A stretch of 32,000 nt of DNA, taken from positions 16,360-48,359 of the forward strand of contig JAIRQE010000024.1 in NCBI GenBank assembly GCA_031256725.1, given 5' to 3'. Positions 1,107-11,690 of the stretch are shown here, piece after piece (position 1 is the first letter of the stretch; every line of letters begins with the position of its first letter). Both the position numbers and the translations under genes were made by a program. Source of the stretch: Propionibacteriaceae bacterium (GTDB lineage: Bacteria; Actinomycetota; Actinomycetes; Propionibacteriales; Propionibacteriaceae). The notes below the pieces were generated by a model. That model searched no databases. It had not been told where the DNA came from and saw only the letters and a list, made by a program, of their open reading frames with translations.

Positions 1107-1892
1107 ATGAAGATGATTGTTGCCCCTATGACTGGCCCTTGGGCTGTACTCGTCTTGGTGATGGCTGTGACTGGAGTCACAATCCACTTCGTATTCCGCA
1201 AGCGTGAACGCGATGTCAGACGCCGAGCACTCCTCATCTTTGCGCTAGTCAACCTGGGGTTCTCCATCACCTTCCACCTGACTTATATGATCAGCCCACC
1301 ACCTGAGGGCTTCCCAATCTTCCAGAATCTTCCCCTACATCTGTGTACCCTCATGAGTTGGTTGATGCCGTTCGCAGTGTGGTTCGACTGGCGGCCACTG
1401 CGGGCAGTCATCTTCTTCCCTGGCGCTCTCGCTGGGATGGCAGCATTGTTTTCTGCCGCCCCATCGTATTGGTACTATGGACTCTTTGACCTTCACACCT
1501 TCTTCTGGGTCAGCCATGGTTTCAACGCGGTCATCCCCTTCCTTCTAGCCTCCCTCCAGTTGTACCGGCCGAAGCTCATTGAGGCTGCTCTTGCTGCCTT
1601 GTACATCTTCATTGCTGCGCTGCTAATCCTCCCGATCACACTGATCTTCCGGGCTTGGGTGGACCCTGGTACGAACTACTTCTATGTCTTCGACCCCGAG
1701 GGCGCTGTCGTCCTAGAGTTCTTCAAGAACCTCATCCCACTCCCAGTCATCTACCTGATCCCACTACTGATCGTGGCTATTCCCGTCATGATGGGCCAGT
1801 ACGGAATCTACCGCCTAGCGAACCGAAGCCATCTCTCCAAAGAGACCTTGACCGAAACTATTGAAGCAACCGCCGACGCTACTTCCGCTTAG
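1107..1892 (+). CDS. Polytopic integral membrane protein, YwaF/TIGR02206-like
   Basis: The ORF spans 999..1892. I prefer the ATG at 1107 (MKMIVAPMTGPWAVLVLV...) because the first TM helix starts there and the 36 upstream codons are hydrophilic and Pro-rich. It is strongly hydrophobic throughout, with several apparent TM helices. Motifs LPLHLC, GALAGMAAL, YRP and NYFY resemble the YwaF family as I recall it. Confidence 0.6.
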   Translation: MKMIVAPMTGPWAVLVLVMAVTGVTIHFVFRKRERDVRRRALLIFALVNLGFSITFHLTYMISPPPEGFPIFQNLPLHLCTLMSWLMPFAVWFDWRPLRAVIFFPGALAGMAALFSAAPSYWYYGLFDLHTFFWVSHGFNAVIPFLLASLQLYRPKLIEAALAALYIFIAALLILPITLIFRAWVDPGTNYFYVFDPEGAVVLEFFKNLIPLPVIYLIPLLIVAIPVMMGQYGIYRLANRSHLSKETLTETIEATADATSA

Positions 1893-3918
1893 TGTACTCA
1901 CTCAGGGATCTGGTACGGAGGAAACTCTCGCCCACTATGGCGTACACCTTCGCAGCCGTTTCTACCTCTGACAAGGGTACATACTCGTCGGGACTGTGGG
2001 CTTGGGTGAGGTCCCCAGGACCATAGACGGCTCCGGTGATTCCTTGTCGGGCGAGCAACTCCACCTCACAGTACCCACGGAATAAGGCCGATTCAGCAGT
2101 CGTACCTGTGACTTCATGGTGGGCGCGCTCTAAGCCCTCAGCGAGAGTGGAATCCTCACCAGCCTGCCATGGGGAGAAGGATTGCTCACACACGAGGTCG
2201 GCGTCGATGTCGTTATCTGCGCAGACTTTGGCGAAGATCCGACGTACCTCGCTGATGACTTCCTCGATATCCTCGCCTGGGAAAACCTGCCGGTCGAAGG
2301 CGATCCGGCAGGTGTCTGGTACGAAGGTGACCCCCACTCCCCCTTCAATGACACCAAGATTCACGCTGGGATCATGAGGGAAACCAAGTGTGGCTCCAAG
2401 CCCGCGCAAGGACTCATGGTACTCCTGGAGTGCAGCCACGATTGTGGTCATCTTCACGATGGCATTGTCACCACGTTCAGCCATTCCTGTATGCGATGAG
2501 CGCCCTCGTACGACCGCTGTGAACTCTGCCGCACCCTGCAAGGCCGAGGCCACCTGGAGCGAGGTTGGTTCGCCCACGATTGCCTGAGTGCAGTTCTTGA
2601 GGGTACCCGCGTTAATCAGCGCTTGGGTACCCTTGAACCAGACTTCCTCATCAATGACTGCGGTGAGCATCAGGCTTCGGTGACGCGGTACCTCGGCTTT
2701 GACGATGGCTTCAATAGCGGCCACCATGGCGGCAAGACCGCCCTTCATGTCACAGGTTCCCCGGCCATAGACCTTGCCATCAATGATCTCCCCACCCAAT
2801 GGGTCGGTTGTCCACAGGCCCAGATCCCCAATAGCAACCGTATCGACATGCCCATTGAACAGCAGGCATTCCTCGGATTCCCCATGCAATACCGCCACAA
2901 CATTCGGGCGACCAGGTTCGACCTCGTGAAGCTCCACATCAAGGCCACATCTGGCTAAACGCTCCGCGATCAACTGGGCCGCTTCCCCTTCCCGACCAGG
3001 CGGATTCTCGGAGTTGGCGCGTACCAAATCTGTGAGGAAGGTACCCAAGGCTTGGGAATCCACGAAGTCGGCTGCAGTACGAGGTTCAGTTGGGTGTACA
3101 GAACTTGGAAGTGGAGTACCAGAGGTCACCTTTGTGGCAGTCGCCTTGGTTGAAGGTACTCCCCGGATGGACTTCAACAGGTGGCTGGACAGTTCAATAA
3201 AACGGGGATGGGATTGCATCTCCAAACGCCGTGGCCGAGGAAGATCAACCTCAACTTGGGTGTGAATGCGACCGGGCCTCGGGGTCATGGTCATCACGCG
3301 GTCAGAGATGTACACCGCTTCTTCGATGTCGTGGGTGACGAAGAGTACGGTCAGACGATGGGTCTCCCAGACCTCAGTGAGAAGCTCCTGCATCTCGTGA
3401 CGGGTCAGAGCATCCAGGGCACCGAAGGGCTCATCCATGAGCAGGATCTCTGGACGATAGCTCAGTGAACGGGCGAGGGCAACACGCTGCTGCATCCCAC
3501 CAGAGAGTTGGGCGGGGTAATGATCCTCGAAACCTAGAAGACCCACCAATTCCAGATGTTCACGGGCAACCTCACTACGTTGGGTAGCAGTAAGGGGTTC
3601 ACCACGCAAGGCGAACTCGACATTTTTGCGGGCGGTCAGCCATGGCAACAAGGTTGCATGTTGGAAGACCACTCCCCTGTCCCGACCAGGGCCAGTGACT
3701 GGTTCCCCGCTCACGATGACTTCACCAGTGGTGGGTTCAGTCAAACCAGCAATGATCGATAGGAGGGTGGATTTCCCGCAACCGGAGACACCCACCAGGG
3801 AGACAAACTCGTTCTCACCCAGGGTGAGATCAATCTCCTCAAGGGCGCTGACAGATCCGAATCTCTTTGACAGGGATCGAATTTCGACTCTGGGTGTGAC
3901 AGGATTCGTGCTCATCAT
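1879..3918 (-). CDS. Fusion protein: NitT/TauT-family ABC transporter ATP-binding domain (aa 1-~252), S/T/P-rich linker, then M20-family metallo-amidohydrolase (ArgE/DapE/YlmB-like, aa ~284-679)
   Basis: One uninterrupted 679-aa ORF. The NBD carries Walker A GVSGCGKST, signature LSGGMQQR, Walker B ILLMDEP and H-loop VTHD. The linker is VPSTKATATKVTSGTPLPSSVHPTEPRTAADF. The M20 part carries HVDTV, GRGTCDMKGG, VIDEE and a C-terminal AHSPDE. The start overlaps the permease stop (ATGATGA at 3912-3918). Confidence 0.85.
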   Translation of the reverse strand: MMSTNPVTPRVEIRSLSKRFGSVSALEEIDLTLGENEFVSLVGVSGCGKSTLLSIIAGLTEPTTGEVIVSGEPVTGPGRDRGVVFQHATLLPWLTARKNVEFALRGEPLTATQRSEVAREHLELVGLLGFEDHYPAQLSGGMQQRVALARSLSYRPEILLMDEPFGALDALTRHEMQELLTEVWETHRLTVLFVTHDIEEAVYISDRVMTMTPRPGRIHTQVEVDLPRPRRLEMQSHPRFIELSSHLLKSIRGVPSTKATATKVTSGTPLPSSVHPTEPRTAADFVDSQALGTFLTDLVRANSENPPGREGEAAQLIAERLARCGLDVELHEVEPGRPNVVAVLHGESEECLLFNGHVDTVAIGDLGLWTTDPLGGEIIDGKVYGRGTCDMKGGLAAMVAAIEAIVKAEVPRHRSLMLTAVIDEEVWFKGTQALINAGTLKNCTQAIVGEPTSLQVASALQGAAEFTAVVRGRSSHTGMAERGDNAIVKMTTIVAALQEYHESLRGLGATLGFPHDPSVNLGVIEGGVGVTFVPDTCRIAFDRQVFPGEDIEEVISEVRRIFAKVCADNDIDADLVCEQSFSPWQAGEDSTLAEGLERAHHEVTGTTAESALFRGYCEVELLARQGITGAVYGPGDLTQAHSPDEYVPLSEVETAAKVYAIVGESFLRTRSLSEYTKRK

Positions 3919-4709
3919 CGTACCTTCTCGTAACGGAAAAGCATACGACCAATAGCCCTCATGATTTGGTCGAAGATCAACCCGAGGAGACCCAGGACCA
4001 CCAGGTACCCGATGATGGTGTCTGTGGCGAAATAACGTTGGGCAACGGTGATTCGATACCCCATACCGCCACTGGCGGCGACCAGTTCAGCGACGACCAG
4101 CCAGGTCCAGGCCCATCCGAGGGTGATCCTCAAAGTGTCGAAGATCCGGGGCCACGCGGCGGGGAAAACGATCCTTGCGAGGATCTGGTGGCGTTTCATT
4201 CCCAGGGTTTCACCCAGGTGGATCATGGATTGGGGTACCTGATGGACGGCATCGGTGATCATGAGCACCTGCTGGAAGAAGGTACCCATCCAGATGATGG
4301 CGAACTTCTGTGAATCACCTGTCCCCACCCAGAGGATCGACAGTGGCACAAAGGCAACCACTGGCATATAACGGACAAAGTCGAAGAGAGGTTCCAACCC
4401 TGCTCGGATCCTTGCGGACATCCCCATGAAGGGGCCGATCGCCAGGGCCATCACAGTGGCGAGGAGGTACCCGATGGTGATCCGATAGACGGACAACCCA
4501 ATGTCGCTCCACAGTTCACCATTCTTGGCTCTGACCACCAGGGAACCGATGACATCCCCAGGGCTGGGAAGGAACAGACTGGGAACAAGTCCGGCTGCGG
4601 TGACCGCAAACCAGACCAGCCCCAATACTGTGAAGGTTCCAAGTGTGATGACCAGATACTGACGTCTGGAGATCTTGGCCCGTACCCGGGAACCTCTGTT
4701 CGACACCAC
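3915..4709 (-). CDS. ABC transporter permease (NitT/TauT family, SsuC/TauC/ThiX-like)
   Basis: 264-aa ORF with a GTG start preceded by AAGGA. It is a multi-TM protein with a BPD-transporter-like core (MGTFFQQVLMITDAV...LGMKRHQILARIVFPAAWPRIF, an EAA-loop-like segment). It is translationally coupled to the downstream ATPase. Confidence 0.85.
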   Translation of the reverse strand: MVSNRGSRVRAKISRRQYLVITLGTFTVLGLVWFAVTAAGLVPSLFLPSPGDVIGSLVVRAKNGELWSDIGLSVYRITIGYLLATVMALAIGPFMGMSARIRAGLEPLFDFVRYMPVVAFVPLSILWVGTGDSQKFAIIWMGTFFQQVLMITDAVHQVPQSMIHLGETLGMKRHQILARIVFPAAWPRIFDTLRITLGWAWTWLVVAELVAASGGMGYRITVAQRYFATDTIIGYLVVLGLLGLIFDQIMRAIGRMLFRYEKVR

Positions 4710-4714
4710 GTTCC

Positions 4715-5698
4715 TTAGCTGAGGTACTGTGCGTCGATCGCTTGATCAGGATCGGCAGAACCACTCAACAAACCAGCGGTGACTGCAACCTCTTTGACCG
4801 CAGGGAGGGTGGCCGTACGATACTCGCCATCCAACAAGCGCTGGTTGTCGGAGAGACTGTAGAAGATCACACCATCGAAGGCAGTGACAAGATCTGCAGG
4901 ATCCTCACCAACACCACGGGCGATGATGGCGCGACCATCCTCAACATTGGCGTTGTAATAGTCAACGGCCTGACCCCAGGATGCGATGAGTGCCTTCACA
5001 GCATCAGCGTTCTCGGCAGCAAACTTGTCGGAAACCATCAATACATCCGAGATGAGACCCTGCTTGGCGCTCGCATCATAGATGACATGCATGTCTGAGT
5101 TCTCAGCCAAGGCGGAGGTGATATAGGGCTCATAGGTCACTGCGGCAGGTACCTGACCAGCAATCACAGCAGCACCAGCATTAGCTGCACCCATGGGCAC
5201 CTTCTCAATGTCAGTGATCGTCATCCCAGCCTCAGCCAGTGCATAGTTCAATAGGAGATCGGAGGTTGCGCCCTCTTCATAGGCGACCTTCTTGCCTTTC
5301 AGATCGGCGACTGTTGTGATCTCACTCGTGGTGATAATGGCATCGGCCGATGTGGCAGCGTCCTCAAGAAGTACGATCTTGGCTTCGACTCCAGATTCGA
5401 TCATCAGTAGCGCCCCATGGGAGGCAACATTGAGAGCATCAACTCGGCCACCAGCCAAAGCAGCCAACATATCGGCATCAGCCTCGAAGTCGGTCAACGT
5501 AACATCCAACCCATTCTCGGCGAAGAAGCCCTTCTCTTGGGCAATGTACCAGGCTCCATATCCCAGCCATGGTTGAATAGCAATTGACACCTTCGTCAAG
5601 CCTTCATCCTCAGTCTTGTCATCAGCGGTAGTACATCCACCCATGAATCCAGTAGCCAAGAGAGCTAAAGAAATCAACATAACCTTGGGCATGCGCAT
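4715..5698 (-). CDS. ABC substrate-binding lipoprotein, NMT1/THI5-like (sulfonate/nitrate/taurine/ThiY family)
   Basis: 327-aa ORF. Signal peptide plus lipobox MLISLALLATGFMGGC. The periplasmic-binding fold pattern (IQPWLGYGAWYIAQEKGFF...GLDV, ADLKGKKVA) is typical of the NMT1/SsuA family. It is the first gene of the 3-gene operon. Confidence 0.8.
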   Translation of the reverse strand: MRMPKVMLISLALLATGFMGGCTTADDKTEDEGLTKVSIAIQPWLGYGAWYIAQEKGFFAENGLDVTLTDFEADADMLAALAGGRVDALNVASHGALLMIESGVEAKIVLLEDAATSADAIITTSEITTVADLKGKKVAYEEGATSDLLLNYALAEAGMTITDIEKVPMGAANAGAAVIAGQVPAAVTYEPYITSALAENSDMHVIYDASAKQGLISDVLMVSDKFAAENADAVKALIASWGQAVDYYNANVEDGRAIIARGVGEDPADLVTAFDGVIFYSLSDNQRLLDGEYRTATLPAVKEVAVTAGLLSGSADPDQAIDAQYLS

Positions 5699-5861
5699 AT
5701 CGCGGCACCTTTCTTTGTAAGTTCAGGTGATAAACCTAGCTAAGTTATGTTACGAAACATTGACGATAGTGACGATGGTGAATTCCTCGTCCTGGGCTAC
5801 CATGAGAACCTGGTTCAGTTTGCTCTGCACCCCACCATCCATCTTGGAGGACATCGCTTTT

Positions 5862-7091
5862 ATGTTCGGTACACCTGAAGTCCTAGCTCCCGCCGGCAAT
5901 CCGGAACGTTTGGATGCTGCCATTCGCTATGGCGCGAATGCGGTCTACCTTGCGGGAAGACAGTACGGTTTGCGCTCTGCTGCTGGGAACTTTGATGACG
6001 AGCAATTAGCTCAAGCAGTGAGTACTGCCCACGCACATGGGGTTCATGTCTACATCACCTGCAATACTCTTCCACGCGATGATGAGTTGGATGGACTCCC
6101 GGCGACCATGGAGTACTGGCAAGAGATCGGAGTCGACGCCATCATTGTGGCTGACCTGGGGGTCTTGAACCTGGCCAAGCACCATGCACCTCAGTGCGCG
6201 ATCCATATGTCCACACAAACTGGCATTGTCAATAGCCTCACAGCGCGAGAGTTGCATGACATGGGGGCCTCCCGGGTGGTACTTGCTCGCGAGTTGTCCA
6301 TGGACGAGATCGCCGGGATTCGCGAACGTACCCCGCCAGAACTCGAACTGGAAGCCTTCGTACACGGGTCAATGTGTATGGCCGTCTCAGGGCGCTGCAT
6401 GATGTCGGCTGCCATGACGAACCGTGACGCCAACCGCGGCAATTGCACCCAGCCCTGTCGATGGAGTTACACCATCGTCGAAGAGAAACGTCCAGGGCAA
6501 TACATGAGTGTCGAGGAGGATGCCTCCGGTACCTATATCTTTAACGCTGAGGACCTCAATATGGTTGAGCATCTGTCTGCCCTCACAAGAGCTGGGGTTA
6601 CCTCCTTCAAAATCGAGGGACGCGCCAAATCACCCTTCTATGTTGCCGTCATCACCAACGCCTATCGCGTGGCGGTCGACGGCCTAGTTGCCTCAGGTTT
6701 CGACCCAGACTACCGACCCGCCCCCTGGGTCATTGAGGAACTCAACAAGGTCTCCCATCGCCCCTATGGCACAGGTTTCTTCTTCGGCCCACCTTCCCAG
6801 TCAACCAATTTCGGAGGGTACGTACGCGACTACTCTCTCGCCGCAGTTGTTGAAGGCTGGGCCGATGGGAGGTTGTACCTCACTCAGCGCAACAGATTCC
6901 TGGCAGGCCAAGCCTTGGAGGTGCTCCTGCCTGGGCGAGAACCCGTGTGCTTGATGGCCGAGGATCTGCGTGACGGAGACGGCGAACCTATCGATGCTGC
7001 ACGCCACCCCATGATGCCAGCCTCCATCCGCTCTGGTACGAGCCTGCCGCCGGGAAGTTTTGTACGTATGGAGATGGCGAAATCTCGATAG
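5862..7091 (+). CDS. U32-family 'peptidase' with 4-Cys Fe-S motif (TrhP/RlhA/UbiU-type family)
   Basis: The ORF spans 5727..7091. The ATG at 5862 (MFGTPEVLAPAGNPERL, the canonical U32 N-terminus) is preceded by GGAGGA at 5846-5851. The motif C-x6-C-x15-C-x3-C (CMAVSGRC...NCTQPC) is encoded at 6375-6458. Confidence 0.85.
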   Translation: MFGTPEVLAPAGNPERLDAAIRYGANAVYLAGRQYGLRSAAGNFDDEQLAQAVSTAHAHGVHVYITCNTLPRDDELDGLPATMEYWQEIGVDAIIVADLGVLNLAKHHAPQCAIHMSTQTGIVNSLTARELHDMGASRVVLARELSMDEIAGIRERTPPELELEAFVHGSMCMAVSGRCMMSAAMTNRDANRGNCTQPCRWSYTIVEEKRPGQYMSVEEDASGTYIFNAEDLNMVEHLSALTRAGVTSFKIEGRAKSPFYVAVITNAYRVAVDGLVASGFDPDYRPAPWVIEELNKVSHRPYGTGFFFGPPSQSTNFGGYVRDYSLAAVVEGWADGRLYLTQRNRFLAGQALEVLLPGREPVCLMAEDLRDGDGEPIDAARHPMMPASIRSGTSLPPGSFVRMEMAKSR

Positions 7092-7176: not shown

Positions 7177-7818
7177 ATGACCGACTATCCCGATTATCCC
7201 CGTGAGAGGCGACCCATCCCTGCTTCCCTGAGGTCACATGCAGCCCAGAATCCTGGTGGGTACGTTGCGGAGATCGACAAAACCATGATCGGTAATCCCG
7301 ATGGGTATGTACCCAATGAGGCCATCTTAGGGCTCTTCTGCATTGGTACCGATGGGCAAGCTACTGGCGAATTCATCGTCAACCCCCATCATGGTCAAGT
7401 CAAGGATGACTTCAGACTATTGGAGGACTCCAATCATTGGCTCGGCTGGATGCCCGACAAACCCGCCCTAGCCATTCGCAAGATCCTGGAAGAGGTACTC
7501 AATGAACAGGTCGCCGGGTCAGTCCTGGATTGGGTAAAGGTCCTTAAAGAACCAGTATTCCTCACCTCAGGAATTCGCTCCCCCCAAGACTCCACAAAAA
7601 TCATCGTGCGACGTACCGCTTTGGCCATAGTCTTCGCTTTAGCGGTACGCCCACCCTCCGAAAAGATCCAAATCCTCACCGGAGCATTCTCCTGGGTAGT
7701 CACAGGCCTCAATCAGGGCCCGAGACGGGATCGCACCTGGCTGGACCTAGGAATGACACGCATACAAGCAGAACAAGCCCTAGAAAAACGCATCTTCGAG
7801 GATGAAGGAACCAACTAA
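7177..7818 (+). CDS. Hypothetical protein (conserved-actinobacterial-looking, no function assignable)
   Basis: 213-aa ORF with coding-like composition in a clean intergenic context. The N-terminal segment GGYVAEIDKTMIGNPDGYVPNEAILGLFCIGTDGQATGEFIVNPHH looks like a recurring actinobacterial motif, but I cannot name the family with confidence. Confidence 0.55.
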   Translation: MTDYPDYPRERRPIPASLRSHAAQNPGGYVAEIDKTMIGNPDGYVPNEAILGLFCIGTDGQATGEFIVNPHHGQVKDDFRLLEDSNHWLGWMPDKPALAIRKILEEVLNEQVAGSVLDWVKVLKEPVFLTSGIRSPQDSTKIIVRRTALAIVFALAVRPPSEKIQILTGAFSWVVTGLNQGPRRDRTWLDLGMTRIQAEQALEKRIFEDEGTN

Positions 7819-7898: not shown

Positions 7899-7975
7899 GG
7901 TACCTATAGCTCAGCTGGTAGAGCATCTGGTTGTGGTCCAGAGGGTCGCCGGTTCAAGTCCGGTTAGGTACCCCA
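7899..7975 (+). tRNA. tRNA-His (anticodon GTG), with encoded G-1 and encoded CCA
   Basis: Hand-folded cloverleaf. 8-bp acceptor including G-1:C73 (GGTACCTA/TAGGTACC), D arm GCTC-AGCTGGTA-GAGC, anticodon arm TCTGG-TTGTGGT-CCAGA, T arm GCCGG-TTCAAGT-CCGGT, then CCA at 7973-7975. Confidence 0.9.
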
Positions 7976-7990
7976 CAGGAAGATCGAGCG

Positions 7991-8024
7991 CAGCGCGAAC
8001 GTGGTTCGCGCTGTTGTGGTTTTC
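7991..8024 (+). terminator. Rho-independent terminator after tRNA-His
   Basis: Perfect 10-bp stem cagcgcgaac / gttcgcgctg (7991-8000 / 8004-8013) with a 3-nt loop, followed by ttgtggttttc. Confidence 0.6.
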
Positions 8025-8223
8025 AGAGAGGGCGCGGCGGATGCTCGCATCCGTGAGCGACCGCTCAGAAAACCACGCAATGTGAGCAAAGCTCGCATTG
8101 CCGAGAACAAGCAGACGCACCTCAATGTCAGATGACTGACGTATCTGACACTATTCATGCTTGTGGGGTTTCTGTGTCACGAGATACGTCTCCTGACATC
8201 CCACGCAGACAAGTCTGCAACCA

Positions 8224-8595
8224 TTACTCTTCGTAGGGCGGCAGGACTAACTCATCTTGATTCTCCAACTCACGTATACAATTCATGATGTCTTCGTACT
8301 TTGGTTGAGAAACAATAACAGAAACAGGCTTCCCGTGAAAGGTCACAAGTACATCGTGTGTCGCCGACATTTTCACGACTCGACTGAAATAATGTTTCGC
8401 ATCCGTAAGCGGGAAAACAGCATCCAACTCAAGATGTGGGAAGACTTTCTCATATTTCTGAGTTGAGACAATGATTGCCATAGGCTTTCCGTGATGGGTC
8501 ACAAGTACATCCTCTGTTTGCGACTTAGTAATCAACTGACCTAGTAAATGCTTTGCATCAGAAGTAGAAAAAGTGGCTGCATTCGATATGTCCAT
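8224..8595 (-). CDS. Tandem-duplicated Phd/YefM-type antitoxin-like protein (two antitoxin N-domains in one chain), orphan
   Basis: 123-aa ORF in AT-rich DNA. Residues 7-51 and 59-103 are ~50% identical to each other. Each matches the Phd/YefM N-domain pattern (x-DAKxxhxxlh...dVlVTxHGKPvxvIVSxxxYE). No adjacent toxin ORF. Confidence 0.7.
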   Translation of the reverse strand: MDISNAATFSTSDAKHLLGQLITKSQTEDVLVTHHGKPMAIIVSTQKYEKVFPHLELDAVFPLTDAKHYFSRVVKMSATHDVLVTFHGKPVSVIVSQPKYEDIMNCIRELENQDELVLPPYEE

Positions 8596-8633
8596 GACAT
8601 CAACCTACCTGCATATCAGCAGATATCCTAACG

Positions 8634-8661
8634 ATTATAAGTATTTACTCTATAATCTGAA
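8634..8661 (-). promoter_or_regulatory. Candidate sigma-70-type promoter for the tandem-Phd gene
   Basis: On the minus strand: TTCAGA (plus 8656-8661), a 16-nt spacer, then TATAAT (plus 8634-8639). This sits 38 nt upstream of the ATG. The leader contains GATAT-N5-GATAT and an EcoRV palindrome (plus 8611-8628), a possible autoregulatory operator. Confidence 0.4.
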
Positions 8662-8740
8662 TTACCTAAGACCTTCATCAACCGTCAGTCCGTACCAAAA
8701 CTCCACCACGGCACCCGATAAACGGCATCATCGCCGACCC

Positions 8741-8780
8741 GGCAACGAAAAGGGGGTGCGCCAGAGGAGTTTCGCACCTC
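8741..8780 (-). terminator. Rho-independent terminator downstream of eda
   Basis: The minus-strand RNA reads gaggugcg-aaacuccucugg-cgcacccc followed by cuuuucguu. The 8-bp stem is plus 8753-8760 / 8773-8780. Confidence 0.55.
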
Positions 8781-8857
8781 AGTATTACTGATACTAATTA
8801 GCTTTAACGTGAATCCGGTCAGGGATCAGGGAATCTGAGTACAGACATCCCAAGGTT

Positions 8858-9475
8858 TCAACCCAAAGAGGCTACGATCCCTAGGGCCTCGCGTACGAGA
8901 GCGGCGATGCCATCGAAGTCTCCGGTTTCCAGAAGATGTTGGGGTACCATCCATGAGCCGGCTACTGCTGGTACACAGGGAAGGCGCAGATAGCCAGCCA
9001 TATTTGAAGCTGAGACTCCACCAGTTGGCACGAACTGGGTTGTTGCAAAGGGAGCAGAGAGTCCAGCGATCCCCTCAGGGCCACCGAATCGATCTGCGGG
9101 GAAGAACTTGACTGTATTGATCCCAAGAGCCTGGGCCGCCATGATGTCTCCAGGGGTAATGCACCCTGGGAGGATCGGCTTTCCTTGAAGTTGAGCTTCA
9201 CGTACGATGTCTGCGCGAAGGCCTGGGCTTATCAGGAATTGTGCGCCTGATTCCACAGCAAATTCAACCTGGTCTGGTGTGACAACCGTACCTGCCCCTA
9301 CGGTCATCCCCTCAACCTCTGACATGATGGCAATGGACTCGGCAGCAGCCTCAGTCCTGAATGTAACCTCTGCAATGGGCAGACCTGCCTCGACTAGGGT
9401 TCGAGCCAAGGGGTAGGCATCCTCTGCGTCGTGGATAACAACGATGGGGATAATGCGATGGGCGAAAAGGTCCAT
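8858..9475 (-). CDS. eda: 2-dehydro-3-deoxyphosphogluconate / 4-hydroxy-2-oxoglutarate aldolase (KDPG aldolase)
   Basis: 205-aa ORF. Family pattern IIPIVVI..., LPIAEVTFRT, GAGTV, FLISPG, KFFPA and VPTGGV is characteristic of Eda. AGGAGG RBS upstream. Confidence 0.85.
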   Translation of the reverse strand: MDLFAHRIIPIVVIHDAEDAYPLARTLVEAGLPIAEVTFRTEAAAESIAIMSEVEGMTVGAGTVVTPDQVEFAVESGAQFLISPGLRADIVREAQLQGKPILPGCITPGDIMAAQALGINTVKFFPADRFGGPEGIAGLSAPFATTQFVPTGGVSASNMAGYLRLPCVPAVAGSWMVPQHLLETGDFDGIAALVREALGIVASLG

Positions 9476-9610
9476 AAAAAACCTCCTGGGATAAAGCGGG
9501 CTGCGGTCTTTTGCGACCTATCCTTGGTCGACCAGACTCCCCTAGTCTAACCGAGATCAGTACAGAACCTCTACGTTAGATATCAGATCATATGCTGTGC
9601 GGACTGCGCG

Positions 9611-10636
9611 CTACTCCTCAATCCGGTGTACTTGAGCAAAATGACAGGCGCTGTCATGCGTGCCCACCAGGTCATCATGGGTAGCCAATTCGGGGATCTC
9701 AACTGCGCAAGTCTGCCTCTGCTCCTTGGTCATCCTCCAGCAACGGGTATGGAATCGGCATCCCCCTGGCGGATTGGCTGGCGAAGGTACATCCCCGGCC
9801 AACACGATCTGTTTCCTGGAATCCTTAAGACTCGGATCGGGTACTGGTACTGCCGAAAGCAGAGCCTGGGTATAGGGATGGGTGGGACGTTCGTAGATCT
9901 CATCCTCATTGCCGATCTCCACAATGCGCCCAAGGTACATCACAGCCACTCGGGTGGAGATATGGCGTACCACTGCCAAATCGTGGGCGATGAAAATATA
10001 GGACAAGCCCAATTCAGATTGAAGGCTCTCCAAGAGGTTCACGACCTGGGCTTGAACGGAGACATCCAAAGCAGACACAGGTTCATCAAGAATCAACAGT
10101 TTCGGGTTGAGAGCAATCCCTCGGGCAACCCCAATACGTTGACGTTGGCCACCTGAGAATTGGTGGGGATAACGGTTGATGTGCTCAGGATTGAGACCCA
10201 CGAGATCAAGGAGCTCTTGTACCCTGGTCCTCCTGGAACCCTTGGGTGCAACATCAGGATGAATATCGAAGGGTTCACCCACAATATCTCCAACCGTCAT
10301 CCTAGGATTCAAGGAGGTGTACGGATCCTGGAAGATGATTTGAATATCCCGGCGCAGTTTACGCATGGCAGAACCCGTGGGGGATTGCTTGTACATATCC
10401 ACCCCAGAGAAGTTGAGGGAGCCCGATGTTGGCTCCTCTAACCTCATCAGGAGGCGACCGAGGGTGGATTTCCCACACCCGGACTCCCCCACAACTCCAA
10501 GGGTCTCCCCCTTATGGAGGTCGAAGGAGACACCGTCTACGGCCCGTACCCATCCGGTGACATGCTGGATGATCCCGGTTTTGATGGGATAGTGCTTAAC
10601 CAGATCCCTGGCTTCCAGAAGTACCTCAGTCATCAT
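9611..10636 (-). CDS. Oligopeptide/dipeptide ABC transporter ATP-binding protein (OppF/DppF-like)
   Basis: The ORF extends to 10696. The start is chosen at ATGATG 10636/10633, which overlaps the upstream stop (…GATGATGACTGA). Walker [18 protein letters not shown], Walker B LILDEP, and a C-terminal oligopeptide-type Cys-rich tail. Confidence 0.85.
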
Positions 10637-11690
10637 CAGAGCCTCCCTGGATGTGGGCTGTGACCTCAGGTGAATCCAGTCGCCAACATGCCGCATATCG
10701 AGAACCCTGGTCGAGTTCGGTCAGGGGAGGTGGGCTACCTTGACGACATTCCTCAGCCGCGAACCGGCATCGCGGATGGAAGGGACACCCCTCAGGCATG
10801 GCGAGAAGGTTCGGCGGCAGCCCACCAATGGCTGGCAGGACCCCACCAGACTTCGCATCCATTCGGGGTACGGACTCCAACAACCCAATAGTGTAGGGAT
10901 GGCGGGGATTGGCATAAACATCATGAACCATAGCTGATTCGACCATGCGACCTGCGTACATCACTGCGATGCGGTCTGCGACATTGGCGACGACACCAAG
11001 ATCATGGGTGATCAAGATGAGCCCCATACCGGATTCTTCCTGGATCTGTTTCAGCAGATCCATGATCTGAGCCTGTACTGTCACATCCAGGGCGGTTGTG
11101 GGTTCATCCGCGATAAGGATGGCAGGGTCCAAGGCGATAGCCATAGCGATCATGATGCGCTGGCGCATACCACCCGAAAACTGATGGGGGAAGGCTTTGA
11201 CTCGTTCGCGTGCCCCAGGAATCTTGACCTTCTCCATGAGTGCAATGGCTTGTTTGAGGGCATTCGCCTTAGTCATTCCTCGATGGATTCTAAACATCTC
11301 TGCAATCTGCCATCCCACTGGAAAACAGGGGTTGAGTGATGAGAGTGCATCCTGGAAGATCATCGCAATGTGAGCACCACGTACCTTGCGGCGTTCCTTC
11401 TCCTTGAGCCCGAGAAGATCCACTCCGCAATAGTTGACGACTCCCCCAGTCACAAAACCTGGAGGGGTGTCCAGTATCCCCATGATGGCTTGGGCTGTCA
11501 CTGATTTCCCTGAACCGGATTCACCCAGAATAGCGAGGGTCTCGTGTCGATCCAGGTGAAAACTCACGCCATTGATCGCATTCGCGATCCCTTCCCGGGT
11601 TCTAAACTCCACATGAAGGTCCTCCACGTCAAGCAGGCGTCCGTTCGAAGATACCCACTGGTTCGATGAGGTCGACTCGTTAGTAGCCAT
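10626..11690 (-). CDS. Oligopeptide/dipeptide ABC transporter ATP-binding protein (OppD/DppD-like)
   Basis: 354 aa. Walker [17 protein letters not shown], Walker [13 protein letters not shown]-loop ITHD, and a C-terminal Cys-rich tail [14 protein letters not shown]...ACW. Confidence 0.85.

Follow-up and report, generated by a model that had tools for sequence, protein, structure and literature searches.

What does a complete amidohydrolase do at the C-terminus of an ATP-binding cassette (ABC) importer ATPase? This question is raised by a three-gene minus-strand operon in a 32,000-nucleotide stretch of DNA from a Propionibacteriaceae bacterium (contig JAIRQE010000024.1, positions 16,360 to 48,359; here, the window). 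The operon encodes a lipoprotein substrate-binding protein (SBP), a permease, and a 679-aa protein in which the nucleotide-binding domain (NBD) of the transporter continues, through a short linker, into an M20 metallohydrolase domain (Table 1). We found that the fusion is genuine, conserved, and derived. The best-supported reading of the system, and one that we consider probable, is that a compound is imported and then deacylated by the enzyme carried on the importer.

Domain searches recovered both halves of the protein. Pfam models matched ABC_tran at residues 26-165 (2e-31), Peptidase_M20 at residues 353-660 (1e-29), and M20_dimer (PF07687) at residues 459-567 (3e-17), which is the combination of a PF00005-type NBD with Peptidase_M20 and M20_dimer that the original prediction had proposed checking with hmmscan. 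The translated NBD contains a Walker A motif (GVSGCGKST), a Q-loop (Q86), a signature motif (LSGGMQQR), a Walker B motif (ILLMDEP), and an H-loop (THD, H196), all of which are invariant in 14 homologs. The M20 half contains the motifs HVDTV, GRGTCDMKGG, VIDEE, GEPT, and AHSPDE. In a HMMER alignment with HiDapE (3ic1), residues H357, D390, E424, E425, E450, and H641 corresponded to H67, D100, E134, E135, E163, and H349, so that no metal ligand was lost. Here, E424 is the catalytic Glu and H357, D390, E425, E450, and H641 are the di-metal ligands, while H476 in the lid domain aligned with H194 of HiDapE. No substitution of a metal ligand, the catalytic Glu, or the lid His occurs in 19 sequences, both fused and unfused, that share 49-75% identity. 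Furthermore, an AlphaFold (AF2) model had a predicted local distance difference test score (pLDDT) of ~90 for the M20 part and a low one for the linker, and the M20 model could be superposed on DapE and ArgE with a TM-score of up to 0.86 (Foldseek).

These results agree with much of what had been read from the sequence at the outset, namely an SBP lipoprotein, permease, and ATPase arranged in one operon (on which ORFs and Pfam concur), a four-nucleotide ATGA overlap between permease and ATPase, and every NBD and M20 motif then quoted. Since the NBD motifs and all M20 ligands are invariant, both halves look functional, as had been suggested. The S/T/P-rich linker is also present, but its boundary shifted slightly, from the claimed 3070-3162 (30 aa) to 3061-3162 (34 aa).

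Comparison with curated models narrows the identity of the two domains. On NCBIfam, the M20 domain passed TIGR01910, the ArgE/DapE family deacylase subfamily, with 279.9 to 282.2 bits against a cutoff of 217.6 (residues 294-658). It did not reach the ArgE equivalogs (TIGR01892, 208 versus 297.7; PRK05111, 166 versus 460), and it fell under the cutoff of every DapE model, with Leu at the position of HiDapE Arg178, the substrate-carboxylate residue. The YgeY equivalog was not reached either (194 versus 321), and the YqeB/YqeC/Mo-hydroxylase gene context is absent from the window. PRK08596, a model that we assume to cover YlmB-like Bacillus proteins, scored 163 against a cutoff of 412. By these curated cutoffs, the domain is predicted to be a member of the ArgE/DapE subfamily that is not DapE, ArgE, or YgeY. 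The NBD likewise scored below the NCBIfam cutoffs for ntrCD (256 versus 291.8), TauB (239.5 versus 357), and SsuB (218.5 versus 395).

Because the window comes from a metagenome-assembled genome (MAG), two ordinary genes could have been joined artificially through a missed stop or a frameshift. An identical protein is present in the NCBI nr database (MDR0489341.1, encoded on a contig of 48,359 bp), and a further copy in a Logan assembly is one residue shorter at the N-terminus and otherwise identical. Full-length fused homologs at 62-75% identity were retrieved from 5.8 billion clustered proteins; they come from JGI, ENA, and NCBI MAGs labeled as Propionibacteriaceae, Bifidobacteriaceae, or Micrococcales. 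Among the matches listed, there were 13 distinct in-frame fused homologs from independent assemblies (JGI, ENA, NCBI, and Logan), a recurrence well above anything that chance would produce. One metagenome locus (L170) adds a distinct fused sequence to the count; three others (L086, L088, and L091) duplicate known proteins. Identity to the window protein was 74-87% across the NBD and 60-72% across the M20 domain, and fell to 6-39% in the linker. Linkers in the homologs range from 31 to 58 aa, are rich in A/G/P/T/S, are always in frame, and never contain a stop. With the same stop-free arrangement in 13 distinct sequences, the absence of a stop codon in the linker stands as originally read, and an assembly artefact is effectively excluded.

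The fusion also has a narrow distribution. When 1.84 billion cluster representatives were searched exhaustively with HMMER, one cluster (P0002), defined at 50% identity, combined an NBD with an M20 domain among the 150 best matches. The other long NBD proteins of this transporter family among those matches paired the NBD with an NMT1-like domain (NrtC type), with a permease, or with a second NBD. We also observed a 612-aa protein (P0166) whose same-family NBD is followed by a C-terminal region weakly resembling a beta-propeller (PF25292), and another long same-family NBD protein (P0224) with no assigned domain at its C-terminus. Independent NBD-M20 fusions may exist in other ABC families, where they would score below those 150 best matches. 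In the literature, we found no description of an NBD fused to a hydrolase of this type, consistent with the earlier statement that such fusions are not known to have been characterized.

How the fusion arose can be read from its closest unfused relatives. The nearest stand-alone M20 homologs (51-57% identity) are encoded in four-gene operons with the order SBP, permease, ATPase, and M20 (L003, L004, and L169), in which the ATPase is 246-249 aa long. In two of these (L003 and L004), the ATPases end with "...LLGTIRGQH*" and "...LLRSIRHPE*", exactly where the linker of the window protein begins ("...LLKSIRGVPSTK..."), which is equivalent to aa ~252-255 of the fusion. The M20 genes of the same two operons start just upstream of the conserved segment "VD...L..LVRA.S.NPPG". 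The position of the split ATPase ends indicates that the fusion arose through the loss of a stop codon, and the junction alignment identifies the linker as the former ATPase stop, spacer, and M20 start. In this scenario, the ancestor would have been a four-gene operon, and the short intergenic spacer would have become the linker once the ATPase stop was lost. In a neighbor-joining tree of M20 domains, constructed without bootstrapping, the fused forms made up a monophyletic group, with the split ABC-linked forms as its sister, which fits a single stop-loss event. One of the split operons contains an imperfect 89-bp tandem duplication of its ATPase-end/M20-start junction (L003:7890-8050; 51/70 positions match). 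The duplication creates a 30-aa ORF (7912-8004) with an M20-like N-terminus and an ATPase-like C-terminal tail, suggesting that the junction may be prone to recombination.

We propose that the lipoprotein SBP would capture a small polar solute, probably an amine-bearing one, which a permease dimer would translocate at the expense of ATP hydrolyzed by two copies of the ATPase. Each copy would carry a flexible linker of 31-58 aa followed by a di-metal M20 amidohydrolase that is predicted to be catalytically competent. In the cytoplasm, this domain would hydrolyze an amide (N-acyl, N-formyl, or N-carbamoyl type) of the imported compound or of a close derivative. An ABC importer has two ATPase copies, and each transporter would therefore carry two M20 domains. 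These may pair into a fixed 2:2 transporter:enzyme assembly, because DapE/ArgE-type homodimers use the lid His of the partner subunit, and this His is conserved here; we take it from established structural work on DapE that the lid H194 acts in trans across the homodimer. Catalytic activity, action on the transported substrate, dimerization of the M20 domains under the NBDs, and any kinetic benefit of the tether are inferences, and it is plausible that the fusion would tether the first catabolic step to the importer. A bolder version, which we regard as a long shot, is that the M20 pair dimerizes beneath the NBDs such that lid movement or product occupancy would be mechanically coupled to the ATPase cycle, linking import and cleavage obligatorily. 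If true, this would make the system a group-translocation-like or product-gated ABC importer, a mode of import that has not been described before.

Genomic context supports the view that the enzyme acts on imported material. The M20 clade almost always adjoins an importer, even when that importer is of another family. M20 orthologs at 46-53% identity lie beside an SSF symporter (L005 and L096), an MFS_2 transporter (L092-L095), or an NCS1 permease (L098 and L099). This persistence of an importer beside M20 while the transporter itself is swapped is what favors action on imported cargo, and the adjacency across the clade upholds the general import-and-deacylate reading of the original prediction. 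More distant M20 homologs (≤36% identity) were not linked to such an ABC transporter at the loci examined. Among the matches listed from a scan of reference genomes, the best had 36% identity, and none of the loci (L006-L085) had such a transporter beside the M20 gene.

These swapped neighborhoods carry additional genes. The loci with the MFS_2 transporter and one with the SSF symporter (L005) also encode a paralog of the HisD family and, divergently, a MerR regulator; at the other SSF locus (L096), neither is present and the divergent gene is a MatE gene. At the NCS1 loci (L098:7959-13486 and L099:2097-7872), the M20 gene (48% identity) is accompanied by DUF2889, YqeC, and a MobA-like nucleotidyltransferase, and the clusters resemble neighborhoods of selenium-dependent molybdenum hydroxylases. 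An assignment of the M20 proteins at these two loci as YgeY was rejected, as they scored under the YgeY cutoff. The HisD-family paralog lies directly upstream of the M20 orthologs (L093:6582-7850, L092:3760-5028, and L005:1162-2430). It scored equally to HpsN (8wwe) and HisD (4g07) and carries the motif GGYPL, where HpsN has GRY[A/S]H with a sulfonate-binding His and HisD has GSAPL (PMC11382572). The GGYPL protein may represent a third specificity class that oxidizes an amino alcohol freed by the deacylase. We considered the paralog as a clue to a sulfonate substrate and dismissed it, as GGYPL lacks the sulfonate-binding His of HpsN. In Ruicaihuangia caeni, hisC-hisB-hisH-hisA and an SseB-like gene directly precede an operon homologous to that of the window (L166:2851-9692, CP159582.1). 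Together with the HisD-like genes at L005, L092, and L093, this proximity to the histidine pathway is a weak lead and may be plain synteny.

Hints about the ligand come from the SBP. The protein matched NMT1 (2.6e-24) and NMT1_2 (1.6e-21) in Pfam, and it has a signal peptide with a lipobox at Cys22, a residue conserved in at least 90% of homologs. On NCBIfam, it marginally passed the SsuA_fam model TIGR01728 (167.5 versus a cutoff of 163.5) and was far from the TauA equivalog (55 versus 304). Its best PDB matches were SsuA (2x26) and TauA (6ssy). A family profile retrieved SsuA at 2e-17 and TauA at 4e-16, with ThiY unreported at E ≤ 1e-3; a single-sequence search retrieved ThiY (3ix1) at 2.3e-4. 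The permease matched BPD_transp_1 (2.8e-23) in Pfam and scored under the NCBIfam cutoffs for TauC, SaoP, and SsuC. The second-best NCBIfam matches pointed to SaoXPA, a selenoprotein-linked system (bioRxiv 10.1101/2022.07.06.499078). We judged this identity not to be relevant, the scores being under cutoff.

In TauA, the amine of the ligand is contacted by Glu106, Thr132, and Asp205, and the sulfonate is contacted by Gly61 (PMC6906117). Profile alignment at ~25% identity placed the amine contacts at the invariant residues D119, T145, and D218. In alignments at the same ~25% identity, Gly61 was replaced by the invariant Asp74, Gly79 by Ala92, and Gln30 by Gln or Glu. Invariant residues of the pocket include W44, Y47, W50, D74, H94, D113, D119, Y140, E141, D147, Y189, E190, Y192, D218, W241, and Y248. 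With the amine contacts of TauA kept in an acidic and aromatic pocket, an amine-bearing ligand is suggested. From these alignments, our best guess is a small compound, amine-bearing or cationic, that contains a hydrolyzable amide.

Several results weigh against import and deacylation as the function of the operon. Some SBP-permease-ATPase operons, such as those of Ruicaihuangia caeni (L166) and Bifidobacterium moukalabense (L168), have no M20 gene, and the SBP pocket is the same in these orthologs. Deacylation may thus not be intrinsic to the cargo, or the enzyme may be encoded elsewhere. One metagenome locus (L171 [= L090]; 8808-10796) carries an in-frame TGA at codon 488, inside the M20 domain. 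At a locus from another sample that is 99.96% identical (L170; 8808-10796), codon 488 is GGA and the 662-aa fusion is intact, so that the single G-to-T change reflects a read error or else a nonsense allele at the strain level. In the latter case, the ATPase can be retained after M20 activity has been lost. In addition, the AF2 model of the NBD part was of low confidence and gave no interdomain geometry, which we attribute to the shallow alignment (~12 rows there). The M20 tree carries no bootstrap values. Lastly, the figures from the reference-genome and metagenome scans refer to the matches listed, and these sample the distribution in part.

A near-neutral origin, in which stop loss between translationally coupled genes became established in a single lineage and each half functions on its own, without any benefit from channeling or coupling, is a serious alternative to kinetic or regulatory coupling through the tether, and we hold it to be possible, if not likely. 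Close relatives include both fused and split versions in an identical gene order, neither the sequence nor the length of the linker is constrained, and the fusion occurs in a single narrow clade, represented by one cluster among the 150 best matches mentioned above. Moreover, the split genes already overlap or abut (L003/L004 junctions and L169), so that one mutation is enough for fusion. Yet the fusion has persisted while its domains diverged to 60-75% identity, it is present in MAGs assigned to all three of the taxa named above, and the M20 tree contains no re-split descendant within the fused clade. Such persistence and spread argue that the fusion is at least not deleterious, which falls short of showing an advantage. 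The M20 domain might instead be mainly regulatory or structural, sensing a cytoplasmic metabolite and gating the ATPase by trans-inhibition in the manner of the C-terminal domains of NrtC/CmpC and MetN/MalK. MalK, MetN, and ModC all have a dimerizing C-terminal regulatory domain beneath the NBDs, and a domain in this position is the standard geometry of such regulators. NBDs of the same family as that in the window often carry C-terminal ligand-binding domains (NBD plus NMT1-like in P0255, P0158, P0152, and P0186), and the NrtC structures provide a direct example (8w9m/8wm7; PMC10945777 and PMC13287603). We consider this role improbable, however. The catalytic and metal-binding residues that are invariant in the 19 sequences would be needless in a purely regulatory domain, and the unfused sister genes encode ordinary stand-alone enzymes of the same clade. 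Regulation and catalysis by the M20 domain are not mutually exclusive.

Two specific pathways were weighed as the context for import and deacylation. The concrete candidate of the original prediction was salvage of the thiamine pyrimidine, with N-formyl-aminopyrimidine (FAMP) as the cargo. The SBP belongs to the NMT1/THI5 superfamily and, besides the match to ThiY given above, is weakly similar to THI5/THI13; an aminopyrimidine could fit into its aromatic and acidic pocket; YlmB itself belongs to the M20 enzymes (Jenkins et al. 2007, as cited in PMC5627462 and PMC10470507); and the genes of one distant M20 subclade adjoin those for NCS1 permeases, a family in which some members transport pyrimidines or thiamine. 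Against this, covariance scans found no thiamine pyrophosphate (TPP) riboswitch (RF00059) in the window at the gathering threshold, in 5600-6100 at E ≤ 10, or in the related loci L001-L005, and no Rfam family at all was found in 5699-5861 even at E ≤ 10. Neither thi nor tenA genes were present in the 32-kb window or at any fused or split locus examined. Both absences had been conceded when the candidate was put forward, and both are borne out. Among Bacillaceae/Firmicutes M20 loci (L025, L034, L050, L031, L045, L040, and L043), none could be recognized as a counterpart of YlmB from an adjacent TPP riboswitch, a T-box being the one element detected. The SBP profile is far nearer to SsuA and TauA than to ThiY, no model more specific than the generic TIGR01910 is passed by the M20 domain, and what accompanies the NCS1-linked M20 genes is YqeC and a MobA-like gene rather than thiamine genes. 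FAMP salvage accordingly did not hold up as a candidate, and we regard it as highly improbable. Scavenging of sulfonates, in which an N-acylated aminosulfonate such as N-acetyltaurine would be imported and deacylated to taurine by a fused analog of NaaABB'CC'/NaaS, was the second pathway. A route that imports N-acetyltaurine and then hydrolyzes its amide is established (PMC4334477), the SBP narrowly passes SsuA_fam, SsuA and TauA are its best structural relatives, the amine-binding triad of TauA is conserved, and NCBI names the protein [quoted passage not shown] However, the replacement of the main-chain contact Gly61 by an invariant Asp74 and the Gln or Glu in place of Gln30 would disfavor an anionic sulfonate, as far as alignment at ~25% identity can be read. 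Desulfonation genes such as tauD, ssuDE, xsc, and tpa are missing from the vicinity of every locus, scores for the TauA, TauB, TauC, and Ssu equivalogs are far under cutoff, and the motif of the HisD-family neighbor speaks against a sulfonate. We therefore find sulfonate scavenging unlikely, and a plain sulfonate would be a doubtful substrate.

Import followed by deacylation of an amine-bearing compound is the reading that we retain, and the fusion has value beyond it. ABC importers carry regulatory domains on their ATPases. An importer ATPase that bears a complete catabolic enzyme appears to be new, in that we found no report of one in the literature and none was present among the top matches of the database searches. 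As a natural "Rosetta stone," the fusion ties an ArgE/DapE-type deacylase clade to a widespread actinobacterial SBP family that also occurs in Bifidobacterium and Microbacteriaceae, so that a ligand identified for either would serve to annotate the two together. With a dimeric enzyme expected to sit on an ATPase that is itself dimeric, in a fixed 2:2 ratio, the protein would be attractive for testing physical coupling between transport and first-step metabolism. The public annotation, "ArgE/DapE family deacylase," makes no mention of the transporter half. A narrow distribution, in one clade of uncultured Actinomycetota, limits the impact.

The three-gene unit of SBP, permease, and fusion was found with unrelated flanks in other loci, which marks it as a self-contained module. 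Within the unit, the TAA stop of the SBP gene is followed by an aagga ribosome-binding site and by the GTG start of the permease 5 nt past the stop, and the permease/ATPase junction reads ...gta cgATGAtg agc.... Scans of the operon strand for sigma-70-consensus promoters and for terminators gave nothing meaningful. No clearly conserved operator was seen upstream of the SBP genes among homologous loci; a weak GGTAAC/GTTATC-like element was noticed by eye, and we make no claim for it. The 3' end of the fusion gene overlaps that of a convergent gene for a TMEM164-like membrane acyltransferase (999-1892) by 14 bp (1879-1892), and no terminator-like structure was detected between the two. The divergent neighbor (5727-7091, plus strand) encodes a TrhP/UbiU-type U32 peptidase, with 308 bits to the TrhP model, which is under its cutoff. 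The GTG start listed for it (5727) probably lies too far upstream, and a start at ~5862 (MFGTPEVL...) fits homology better. This gene is not kept beside the operon in other loci. Between it and a tRNA gene (7900-7972) lies a 213-aa ORF without a Pfam match (7177-7818, plus strand). Just past the tRNA gene, a 123-aa protein (8224-8595, minus strand) is built from a tandem pair of Phd/YefM antitoxin domains, and no toxin partner is obvious; it falls in a stretch of lower GC content (0.486 over 8001-9000) and may be a small integrated element.

Table 1. Coordinates of the operon and its parts in the window
Feature	Position	Strand	Basis or remark
SBP lipoprotein, NMT1/SsuA type, 327 aa; operon gene 1	4715..5698	-	ORF, Pfam, and NCBIfam
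ABC permease, TauC/SsuC-like, 264 aa	3915..4709	-	ORF and Pfam BPD_transp_1
NBD-M20 fusion, one uninterrupted open reading frame (ORF), 679 aa	1879..3918	-	
ATGA overlap of permease stop and ATPase start, translational coupling	3915..3918	-	Direct reading of the sequence
NBD (ATPase) part, aa 1-252	3163..3918	-	Pfam ABC_tran 2.3e-31
Linker, aa 253-286 (34 aa), GVPSTKATATKVTSGTPLPSSVHPTEPRTAADFV	3061..3162	-	
M20 ArgE/DapE-type metallohydrolase part, aa 287-679, with TAG stop	1879..3060	-	
Intergenic region upstream of the operon, common to the divergent U32 peptidase gene	5699..5861		Presumed promoter region

Each half of the system has well-known relatives. TauABC and SsuABC (NitT/TauT family, TC 3.A.1.17) share the three-component architecture and the protein families of the window operon. 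The permease and NBD are nearest to TauC/SsuC and TauB/NrtD-type models, and the amine contacts of TauA are kept. In contrast, equivalog scores in the window are far under cutoff, the putative anion site is altered, desulfonation genes are missing nearby, and TauB and SsuB have no C-terminal enzyme. The ArgE/DapE deacylases have the same fold as the M20 domain, with catalytic and dimerization domains and identical di-metal ligands, catalytic Glu, and lid His, but they are free-standing, whereas the window domain is fused to a transporter ATPase.

Other systems share the logic of pairing an importer with a deacylase. ThiXYZ and YlmB of Bacillus also combine an importer that has an NMT1-superfamily SBP with an M20 deacylase acting on the imported compound; their genes are unlinked and controlled by a TPP riboswitch, whereas the window operon has no riboswitch or thi context and its SBP is not ThiY-like by profile comparison. 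In Streptococcus pneumoniae, metQ-hmrB-metNP is an ABC importer operon that includes M20 as a gene of its own (PMC5359408). This operon and NaaABB'CC' with NaaS of Ruegeria/Cupriavidus (PMC4334477) are importer operons that contain, or lie beside, an amidohydrolase thought to deacylate the cargo. They belong to the MetNIQ family and the Opp type, respectively, and their enzymes are separate polypeptides, unlike the fusion in the window. The nearest precedent by architecture is NrtC/CmpC of the cyanobacterial nitrate and bicarbonate importers, which are of the same transporter family and in which an NBD is followed by a linker and a cytoplasmic C-terminal domain of ~270-400 aa. That domain is a noncatalytic, SBP-like allosteric sensor (8w9m; PMC10945777 and PMC13287603), whereas the C-terminal domain in the window is not NMT1-like, and hence not homologous to its SBP in the way of the NrtC type, but an M20 domain with a complete active site.

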